A stretch of 42,411 nt of DNA from an uncultured Polynucleobacter sp. (GTDB lineage Bacteria; Bdellovibrionota_B; Oligoflexia; Oligoflexales; RGVZ01). The notes under the pieces were generated by a model. That model was not told the DNA's origin. It did no database searches and worked only from the letters and a program-made list of their open reading frames with translations. Below, piece after piece: positions 19,273-20,262 of this stretch. Both the position numbers and the translations under genes were made by a program. The stretch lies in assembly GCA_964624705.1 (NCBI GenBank), contig CAZUYQ010000003.1, positions 50,163 to 92,573 on the forward strand. The letters are read 5' to 3'. The first letter of the stretch is position 1. Each line of letters opens with the position of its first letter.

Positions 19273-20172
19273 ATGTTTCTTGAAATGATCAGCCATTGGA
19301 GTGATGGGTATATGGAACTAAAAATCAAGGGACTAGATCAAATTACGGCGTGGATCGGCGGCATCGTTATTGCCTCCGCAGTGGCGGGTATCATACTCTT
19401 TATGGGTCAACGAATTGATAAACGCGAGGAAGAAGCCAAGATCCAACTCGCGAAAGAGGCCGAGTCCATACTCGCGGCAGCTACCAAAAACCAACAAGCT
19501 GCAAAAAAAACTGCACTTAGCGAGACCGATAGCAAAGAGACCGGGGTCACTGACGACAGCTCTCCAAGAAAGAAAAATGCCATCCTACCCTATGGATATT
19601 CTGGTCCTCAAGCCCCATGGCGTTGGAGCGATATTCAGGAAAATTGGCAACTTTGTGGCAAAGGTAAAAGACAATCCCCGATTGATATTTCGGGCGCACG
19701 GATGGACCCTAGACTTAAAGCACTAAAGTTTAACTATCAACACGGCACCACGATTCTCTCCCTCGCCAATCAAACTCTTCAAGGCTCCGTCGAATTCGGT
19801 TCCTGGCTGGACATCGATGGCGACCGATACGATCTCAAGAAAATCACATTTCATACGCCCTCTGAACACCGCATCCACGGCTTACCCTATGAAATGGAAA
19901 TTCAGCTCCATCATCAAGAACTTTCAGGGAAGACTGCTTCCGTTGCTCTACTCATTACCGTCGGCTCCTCAAATCATGCGATCCAACGGATCGATGAAAA
20001 ATTACCGCGCTATGAGGGCGAAGAAATTGTCCTTGATCGCTTTAAATGGGATGACCTCATAAGTGCAAAAAAGCGCACCTACTGGCAATATACCGGCTCG
20101 CTCACAACACCTCCATGCACGGAAAACTTAAACTGGATCGTCCTCACCGAAACCTCTCCTGCGACAACTTAA
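19273..20172 (+). CDS. Alpha-carbonic-anhydrase-like protein, membrane-anchored, ended by an in-frame TAA (likely pseudogene or pseudoenzyme)
   Basis: Alpha-CA hallmarks present: QSPIDI, FHTPSEH, YTGSLTTPPCTE and NWIVL. There is an N-terminal TM helix. The real start may be the ATG at 19312 (GGAG 10 nt upstream). See the finding for the stop codon and ligand substitutions. Confidence 0.7.
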   Translation: MFLEMISHWSDGYMELKIKGLDQITAWIGGIVIASAVAGIILFMGQRIDKREEEAKIQLAKEAESILAAATKNQQAAKKTALSETDSKETGVTDDSSPRKKNAILPYGYSGPQAPWRWSDIQENWQLCGKGKRQSPIDISGARMDPRLKALKFNYQHGTTILSLANQTLQGSVEFGSWLDIDGDRYDLKKITFHTPSEHRIHGLPYEMEIQLHHQELSGKTASVALLITVGSSNHAIQRIDEKLPRYEGEEIVLDRFKWDDLISAKKRTYWQYTGSLTTPPCTENLNWIVLTETSPATT

Positions 20173-20262
20173 GAGATTGATCTCATTGCTGCACTTCAGA
20201 AAAACAATGCCCGACCAGTCCAGGAACTCCACGGCCGCTCGGTCACTCGCAGTAATCGTTAG

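Follow-up and report, generated by a model that had tools for sequence, protein, structure and literature searches.

A membrane-anchored alpha-carbonic-anhydrase-like protein of freshwater Oligoflexales: a probable pseudoenzyme, interrupted in one genome by an in-frame stop codon

Our study examined a carbonic anhydrase (CA)-like gene in a 42,411-nucleotide stretch of bacterial DNA (the window; positions 50,163 to 92,573 of contig CAZUYQ010000003.1, assembly GCA_964624705.1), which is deposited as an uncultured Polynucleobacter sp. and placed by GTDB among the Oligoflexales. The encoded protein probably belongs to a conserved clade of membrane-anchored alpha-CA-like pseudoenzymes from freshwater Oligoflexales, and was probably cut short in this genome by a recent stop codon. 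It retains the alpha-CA fold, yet two of the three histidines that would bind the catalytic zinc are replaced, and the same loss recurs in intact orthologues that are held under strong purifying selection. Among the readings offered by the initial annotation, that of a catalytically dead CA-related protein truncated by a nonsense codon is the one best backed by the evidence presented here. Coordinates are those of the window and are collected in Table 1.

Zinc site, fold and ancestry of the CA-like protein

The protein was assigned to the alpha-CA family by both homology and fold. Pfam family PF00194 was matched with 118.5 bits against a cut-off of 27, and PDB sequence matches reached an E value of 6.6e-41. 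An AlphaFold2 model of the 95 % identical relative P0001, built from a 30-sequence alignment, gave predicted local distance difference test (pLDDT) scores of 93–97 over the CA domain, and Foldseek superimposed the modelled domain on bacterial alpha-CAs with TM-scores of 0.91–0.94 and root-mean-square deviations of 1.4–1.6 Å. In this model the transmembrane segment and a charged stalk form a helix (residues 10–67), which is followed by a disordered linker (residues 68–89). The cysteine pair that forms a disulfide in bacterial periplasmic alpha-CAs was invariant across 30 aligned sequences, and for this reason the CA domain probably faces the periplasm. A search of NCBIfam with P0001 matched no family.

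The initial annotation had aligned the active site by eye and proposed Thr, His and Gln at the three ligand positions, so that only the equivalent of His96 of human CA II would be kept. This assignment was reproduced by HMMER alignments to the structures 6IM0, 6EKI, 8W7X and 4XZ5 and by a MAFFT alignment with human CA II numbering, neither of which placed histidines in all three columns. HMMER paired the reference strings kqFHFHaPSEH and EaHfvH with kkITFHtPSEH and EiQlhH, giving Thr at position 94 (nt 19846–48), His at position 96 (nt 19852–54) and Gln at position 119 (nt 19903–05). Beyond the ligands, Gln occupies position 64 (the proton shuttle), His occupies position 121 (a Val of the CO2 pocket in CA II) and Lys occupies position 92, which in CA II orients His94. 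Tyr7, Ser29, Glu106, His107, Glu117, Thr199, Thr200, Cys203, Trp209, Asn244 and Arg246 are all kept, the gatekeepers Thr199 and Glu106 among them.

The protein thus presents neither the three histidines nor the His64 and Val121 of an alpha-CA enzyme (EC 4.2.1.1), and it differs from the His-His-Gln triad of the eta class in that it combines Gln119 with Thr at position 94. Judged by its residues, it could not hold a catalytic zinc in the normal way and would be without catalysis. The case for inactivity is built on the combined loss at positions 94, 64 and 121 (and 96 in most orthologues), as Gln119 alone is no proof. An alpha-CA fold from which at least one zinc ligand has been lost is what defines the CA-related proteins (CARPs), and the CA-like protein conforms to this type, including in its retention under purifying selection across species, which was indicated by the ratio of nonsynonymous to synonymous substitution rates (dN/dS), an invariant scaffold in 30 sequences and a well-supported clade.

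Orthologues were found in most genomes of the same genus, at 40–45 % identity and covering query residues ~13–17 to 329 without a stop, and all of them end in RSNR. Most carry (Y/F/M)-x-R-T-PSEH and E-x-Q-L-E-H, motifs that retain none of the three ligands and pair Arg96 with Glu121, whereas the subclade of the window (P0001–P0009) has T/S-x-H and Q-L-H-H and the sister genus S/G-x-H and Q-L-N-H. Common to the clade are an N-terminal DQxxAW motif, the transmembrane anchor, the linker, the CA domain and the invariant C-terminal RSNR; Gln119 is present in all members and His94 in almost none. The carriers are metagenome-assembled genomes (MAGs) of freshwater Oligoflexales from Lake Mendota, Lac Pavin and other lakes. 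Pairwise dN/dS was 0.10 between the window and P0001, 0.074 between the window and P0002 and 0.081 between P0001 and P0002. On this comparative evidence the loss of the zinc ligands is a trait of the family and not decay.

To place this clade, a search of 1.84 billion proteins was reduced to 57 single-domain representatives of the same architecture (clusters at 50 % identity). In a maximum-likelihood tree of these sequences the lineage of the window fell in a 13-member clade with support of 100/99 and no His-His-His member, the Thr-His-Gln subclade was nested inside the Arg96 group, and ligand loss had occurred several further times elsewhere. Of the representatives, 23 have all three histidines and 34 lack at least one; Gln119 occurs in 29 of these 34, and 27 of the 29 have also lost His94. 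Glu106, Glu117, Thr199 and Arg246 were nearly invariant across the 57. The outermost members of a further alignment (A1), P0029, P0030 and P0033, share the DQxxAW motif, anchor and linker and keep FHFH, EMHLVH and NGHT, which indicates that a canonical anchored enzyme gave rise to the clade.

Among the known systems closest to the CA-like protein are CARPs VIII, X and XI of animals, which likewise have an alpha-CA fold with at least one zinc-ligand histidine replaced and are kept by selection. They work by interacting with other proteins; a non-catalytic enhancement of the proton-coupled transporter MCT1 is known for all three (PMC6609565), which sets a precedent for such a role at a transporter. 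The CA-like protein differs from them in being bacterial and in having an N-terminal transmembrane anchor and a clade-specific RSNR C-terminus. Descent from a common acatalytic ancestor is not indicated, the nearest relatives being bacterial anchored His-His-His enzymes, and the nesting of the clade in a tree constructed without animal CARPs points to an independent origin. The periplasmic alpha-CAs of Neisseria gonorrhoeae (1KOP), Persephonella (6IM0) and Thiomicrospira (4XZ5) have the same fold at 30–36 % identity (the TM-scores are those given above) and share with the CA-like protein the Cys pair, Thr199, Glu106, Glu117, Asn244 and Arg246, but have His94, His96, His119, His64 and Val121 where it has Thr, His, Gln, Gln and His. 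Canonical bacterial periplasmic alpha-CAs are soluble and exported with a signal peptide, whereas the CA-like protein is anchored in the membrane.

Two eukaryotic examples share the Gln at the third ligand position, namely the eta-class CA of Plasmodium and the CARP of Toxoplasma (TgCA_RP). The latter also lacks the first His, is tethered to the membrane by a glycosylphosphatidylinositol anchor and is inactive (PMC5437132). Both belong to another lineage, with another type of anchor and cellular context, and eta-CA, which keeps His94 and His96, is active. The yam storage protein dioscorin (4TWL) has the alpha-CA fold and was a strong match both by sequence (3.2e-28) and by structure (2.3e-23), but is a soluble plant protein with neither membrane anchor nor operon context.

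Acatalytic relatives of CA have been studied in depth in animals and are also on record for apicomplexans, and our literature search, whose coverage left out most subscription journals, found no description of bacterial ones. The clade would be a bacterial, independently evolved and membrane-anchored counterpart of the CARPs; the stop codon is in itself ordinary. The proteins of the clade are named ‘carbonic anhydrase’ in databases, and with ligand loss so common in this anchored family (34/57), these genomes are credited by automatic annotation with more capacity for CO2 hydration than they have.

The in-frame stop codon and the limits of the gene

Direct reading of the sequence agreed with the initial annotation that the open reading frame ends at TAA 20170–20172 and that the frame then stays open for 29 codons (20173–20259) up to TAG 20260–20262, which adjoins the ATG of the next gene at 20263. 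The annotation had taken the ancestral gene as 19273..20262; its end stands, but its start does not, the true ATG (Met14 of that reading) lying 39 nt downstream at 19312. This start was chosen because close and distant relatives all begin at the matching ATG (MELKIKGLDQ...), because the locus of a close relative (L024) has stop codons within the 39 nt upstream of the equivalent start, and because a GGAG motif lies 10 nt upstream. The ancestral gene accordingly spans 19312..20262 with 316 codons, and its truncated product is 286 aa long.

The proposal that the 29 codons encode the C-terminal strand of an alpha-CA was also upheld. PF00194 covers profile positions 7–210 of 254 in the truncated product (6e-30) and 7–253 of 254 with the stop read through (4.9e-34), solved bacterial alpha-CAs align through the very end of the tail, and 27 of its 29 residues are identical to those of P0002. 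Openness alone proves little, as by calculation a run of 29 open codons has a probability of ~0.19 at 45 % GC, but by homology the tail is a genuine alpha-CA C-terminus. Extensions of 20–70 codons past the stop were found in 1117 genes of the genome; by its codon-usage log-likelihood ratio of 0.26 the tail ranked 18th of the 1117, compared with a median of ~0.19 for true gene ends, although this genome-wide scan is too noisy over 20–30 codons to count broken genes.

The stop was absent from the relatives in the comparison of orthologues that the initial annotation had proposed. L024 (95 % identical) and L025 (92 % identical) both have AAA (Lys) where the window reads TAA, and P0001 (Logan SRR29476912), P0002 (ENA ERZ28654051) and P0003 read SPATT-K-EID across the position. 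No interruption was found in any other clade member; a TAG in a distant homologue (L023) was considered as a second interrupted copy and was rejected, since it lies upstream of that gene's start. Codon by codon, the window aligned with L024 and L025 without indels. Relative to P0001 and P0002, the lineage of the window has accumulated 13 synonymous, 2 missense (A217T and R292L) and 1 nonsense change, a synonymous to missense ratio like that of the intact relatives (24:7 and 50:16). Compared with intact orthologues the gene therefore has the premature stop of a pseudogene, but neither further lesions nor relaxed selection. No strain-variant second copy was found in the same assembly.

The greater part of the final helix and both the N-x-R-P and the terminal strands lie in the segment removed (elements 286–296, ~304 and 312–313 of the P0001 model), as do the invariant Asn299 and Arg301 (Asn244 and Arg246 in CA II) and the nearly invariant Pro302, Arg309, Ser314 and Arg316. 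The loss of these residues makes it unlikely that the truncated product folds, and it is probably misfolded and inactive. As the ancestral stop abuts the ATG of the downstream EamA transporter gene (TAGATG), with no obvious ribosome-binding site before it, a stop placed 90 nt early may also weaken translational coupling between the two genes.

Competing explanations and a possible role

The stop, which is known from the assembled consensus, is in our judgement quite probably a nonsense mutation, and a very recent one because the rest of the gene is without relaxed constraint. The co-occurrence of a premature stop and missing catalytic residues in one gene could suggest that both belong to a single process of decay, as the initial annotation had allowed. 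As an account of the ligand substitutions this was refuted, and it is highly improbable for the gene as a whole, given that the same substitutions are found in intact orthologues across the clade at 30–95 % identity, that dN/dS is 0.07–0.10 with 13 synonymous against 2 missense changes in the lineage of the window, and that the gene shows neither indels nor damage to the tail. A harder case is presented by a base-call or consensus error in the MAG, whereby the organism would have AAA and the full 316-aa protein and the pseudoenzyme reading would be unchanged. It would fit with the single base that differs from two close relatives, with the lack of any other sign of decay, with a clade under constraint so strong that a null allele is unexpected, with a scaffolded assembly of 197 contigs containing 14,122 N, and with the frame breaks seen in a related metagenome contig (L051). 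Consensus substitution errors are, however, rarer than real nonsense polymorphisms, so that an error is a priori the less likely origin; the remaining genes of this region of the window are intact open reading frames, and TAA shows no genome-wide excess among high-scoring extensions. We therefore regard an error as unlikely, while giving it more weight than any other competing account of the stop. A functional stop, serving programmed read-through or a recoded TAA, or else an intentionally short isoform, could draw on a tail that is perfectly preserved and in frame, yet a very recent mutation would leave the tail equally well preserved. TAA is the commonest stop of this genome (49 % of genes) and accounts for 45 of the 93 high-scoring read-through extensions, giving no sign that it has been reassigned or is generally leaky; no relative has a stop at the position, no recoding signal was seen, and truncation takes away the invariant core residues Asn244 and Arg246. 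A functional stop is accordingly very hard to credit. Whether strain-level null allele or error, the stop codon is itself of little weight.

Turning to the protein, the pseudoenzyme reading has to be weighed against a metalloenzyme with an unconventional site formed by His96, Gln119 and His121, acting as a divergent CA of eta-class type or as another hydrolase. The His-His-Gln eta-CA of Plasmodium is active and the H94N variant of CA II keeps some activity (PMC5437132). His121 was gained only in the subclade of the window, which has also kept His96; it lies two residues past Gln119 on the same strand, with the spacing of His94 and His96, so that this subclade may have such a metal site, and the gatekeepers Thr199 and Glu106 are in place. 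Orthologues with the same synteny have Arg96, Glu121 and Tyr, Phe or Met at position 94, however, and cannot bind a metal there, so that a function shared by the clade cannot depend on a site of the window type. His64 and the hydrophobic CO2 pocket are lost as well, and the Toxoplasma CARP, with two of three histidines replaced and Gln at the third position, is inactive (PMC5437132). We consider a surviving metalloenzyme improbable. Together with the active eta-CA and H94N enzymes and the histidines of this subclade, several points weigh against our overall interpretation: the truncated product, in its 299-aa and 286-aa versions, was not found in public assemblies by exact look-up; the periplasmic orientation is deduced from sequence; the EamA neighbour is absent in the sister genus and in the locus L052; and the association with EamA, as gene order within one genus, could be inherited synteny.

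If the CA-like protein is a pseudoenzyme, its history would begin with a canonical anchored enzyme whose zinc site, proton shuttle and CO2 pocket were dismantled while selection retained the scaffold. The anchored protein would then have a non-catalytic role, serving the EamA transporter encoded downstream as a binding or accessory module, and in this genome a single A-to-T change would have turned Lys AAA into TAA and removed the last 29 residues. The accessory role is a tentative proposal. A fuller version, which we put forward as speculative, is that these proteins form an old, independent lineage of bacterial CARP counterparts whose vacated zinc site is occupied by an Arg96–Glu121 pair (His96/His121 in the subclade of the window). 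Their periplasmic domain would have an anion or a small molecule as its ligand, or would serve as an accessory or ‘antenna’ subunit of a co-transcribed EamA transporter, possibly within the phosphate-starvation response; the last element is suggested by the position of the gene behind pstSCAB. One pseudoenzyme beside one transporter gene may offer a compact bacterial system in which to ask what a CA fold without zinc does.

Gene neighbourhood and other alpha-CA genes

Table 1. Features of the CA-like gene and its surroundings (window coordinates)
Feature	Position	Strand	Remarks
CA-like gene, present form	19312..20172	+	286 codons and premature TAA (20170–20172)
Short N-terminal segment	19312..19347	+	family motif G-L-D-Q-I-T-A, with Gln10 invariant and Asp9 nearly so (alignment A1; N-termini of the 57 representatives)
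Single transmembrane anchor AWIGGIVIASAVAGIILFMG	19348..19407	+	hydrophobic stretch, then an extended charged helix and, up to ~19590, a disordered linker rich in Lys, Glu and Gln
Alpha-CA-fold domain	19591..20259	+	broken at 20170; PF00194, PDB sequence matches, Foldseek
Thr-Phe-His at the His94-x-His96 columns	19846..19854	+	second zinc ligand retained, first one lost
Gln-Leu-His at the His119-x-Val121 columns	19903..19911	+	third zinc ligand lost; His in place of the hydrophobic residue of the CO2 pocket
In-frame TAA	20170..20172	+	single A-to-T difference at 20170 from AAA (Lys), by codon alignment with L024 and L025
Detached C-terminal tail EIDLIAALQKNNARPVQELHGRSVTRSNR and ancestral TAG stop	20173..20262	+	29 codons; equivalents of Asn244 and Arg246, RSNR terminus of the clade
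GGAG ribosome-binding site	19298..19301	+	10 nt 5' of ATG 19312; kept in L024 and L025
EamA/DMT-family transporter gene	20263..21162	+	PF00892, 8.5e-42; ATG abuts ancestral stop (TAGATG)
Divergent receiver-domain (REC) gene	18233..19141	-	PF00072; separates pstB from the CA-like gene in some relatives but not in others
pstB, last gene of pstSCAB	17431..18231	+	CA-like gene downstream in most relatives
Palindrome AATACTatcAGTATT	19177..19191	+	within the 170 nt that separate the divergent REC gene from the CA-like gene

The EamA gene, whose product also matches TIGR00950 below the model cut-off, came next on the same strand in all orthologues of the genus that were examined. The gaps measured ~0 to 50 nt, and L024 and L025 preserve the TAGATG junction. 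Upstream lies pstSCAB (14525–18231), with or without the intervening receiver-domain gene; pstB and the CA-like gene are 6 nt apart in L005/L026 and 38 nt apart in L052 (P0015). pstSCAB is, like EamA, absent as a neighbour in the sister genus, and in L052 (274–7007) the CA-like gene is followed by a lipoprotein-like protein with no Pfam match and a PF01663 phosphodiesterase. In L051 (ENA ERZ19028630 scaffold_10838), the gene calls split pstB (214 + 46 aa) and EamA (170 + 110 aa), both of which are whole in the otherwise matching L050. The palindrome upstream of the CA-like gene, a possible operator, is kept in L024 and partly in L025 and is absent in L050. Pho regulation is no more than a speculation, as simple k-mer and TGTCA searches found no shared 8-mer or longer between the upstream regions of pstS and the CA-like gene and no Pho box of the E. 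coli type upstream of the latter. After EamA the window has a gene of 130 aa (21176–21568, minus strand) with no Pfam or NCBIfam match at E 0.001 and an 87.6 % identical counterpart in L025; a similarly placed 132-aa gene in L050 weakly matches a DCC1-like thiol-disulfide oxidoreductase (E 0.021).

The source genome has three alpha-CA homologues. The paralogue on contig C114 (L001:405-1679, minus strand) is canonical, with His-His-His in FHFH and ELHLVH and a long His/Asp/Glu-rich linker, and this enzyme probably covers CO2 hydration in the source organism. Similar linkers were seen in the canonical anchored relatives P0161, P0185 and P0187, whereas the ligand-less clade has Lys/Glu/Gln linkers. 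The C19 paralogue (L003:1258-2145; 295 aa) is anchored by a transmembrane segment and carries Glu-His-Gln at positions 94, 96 and 119 (IEFH and EVQFIH); its best match among the relatives searched was only 38–40 % identical, and it has no close orthologue among them. Further afield, three bacterial alpha-CA homologues (P0175, P0209 and L036) have the His-His-Gln triad of the Plasmodium eta class and may be active enzymes. The top of the representative profile search was occupied by proteins of 860–3000 aa with 4–13 alpha-CA-like repeats (P0121–P0132).

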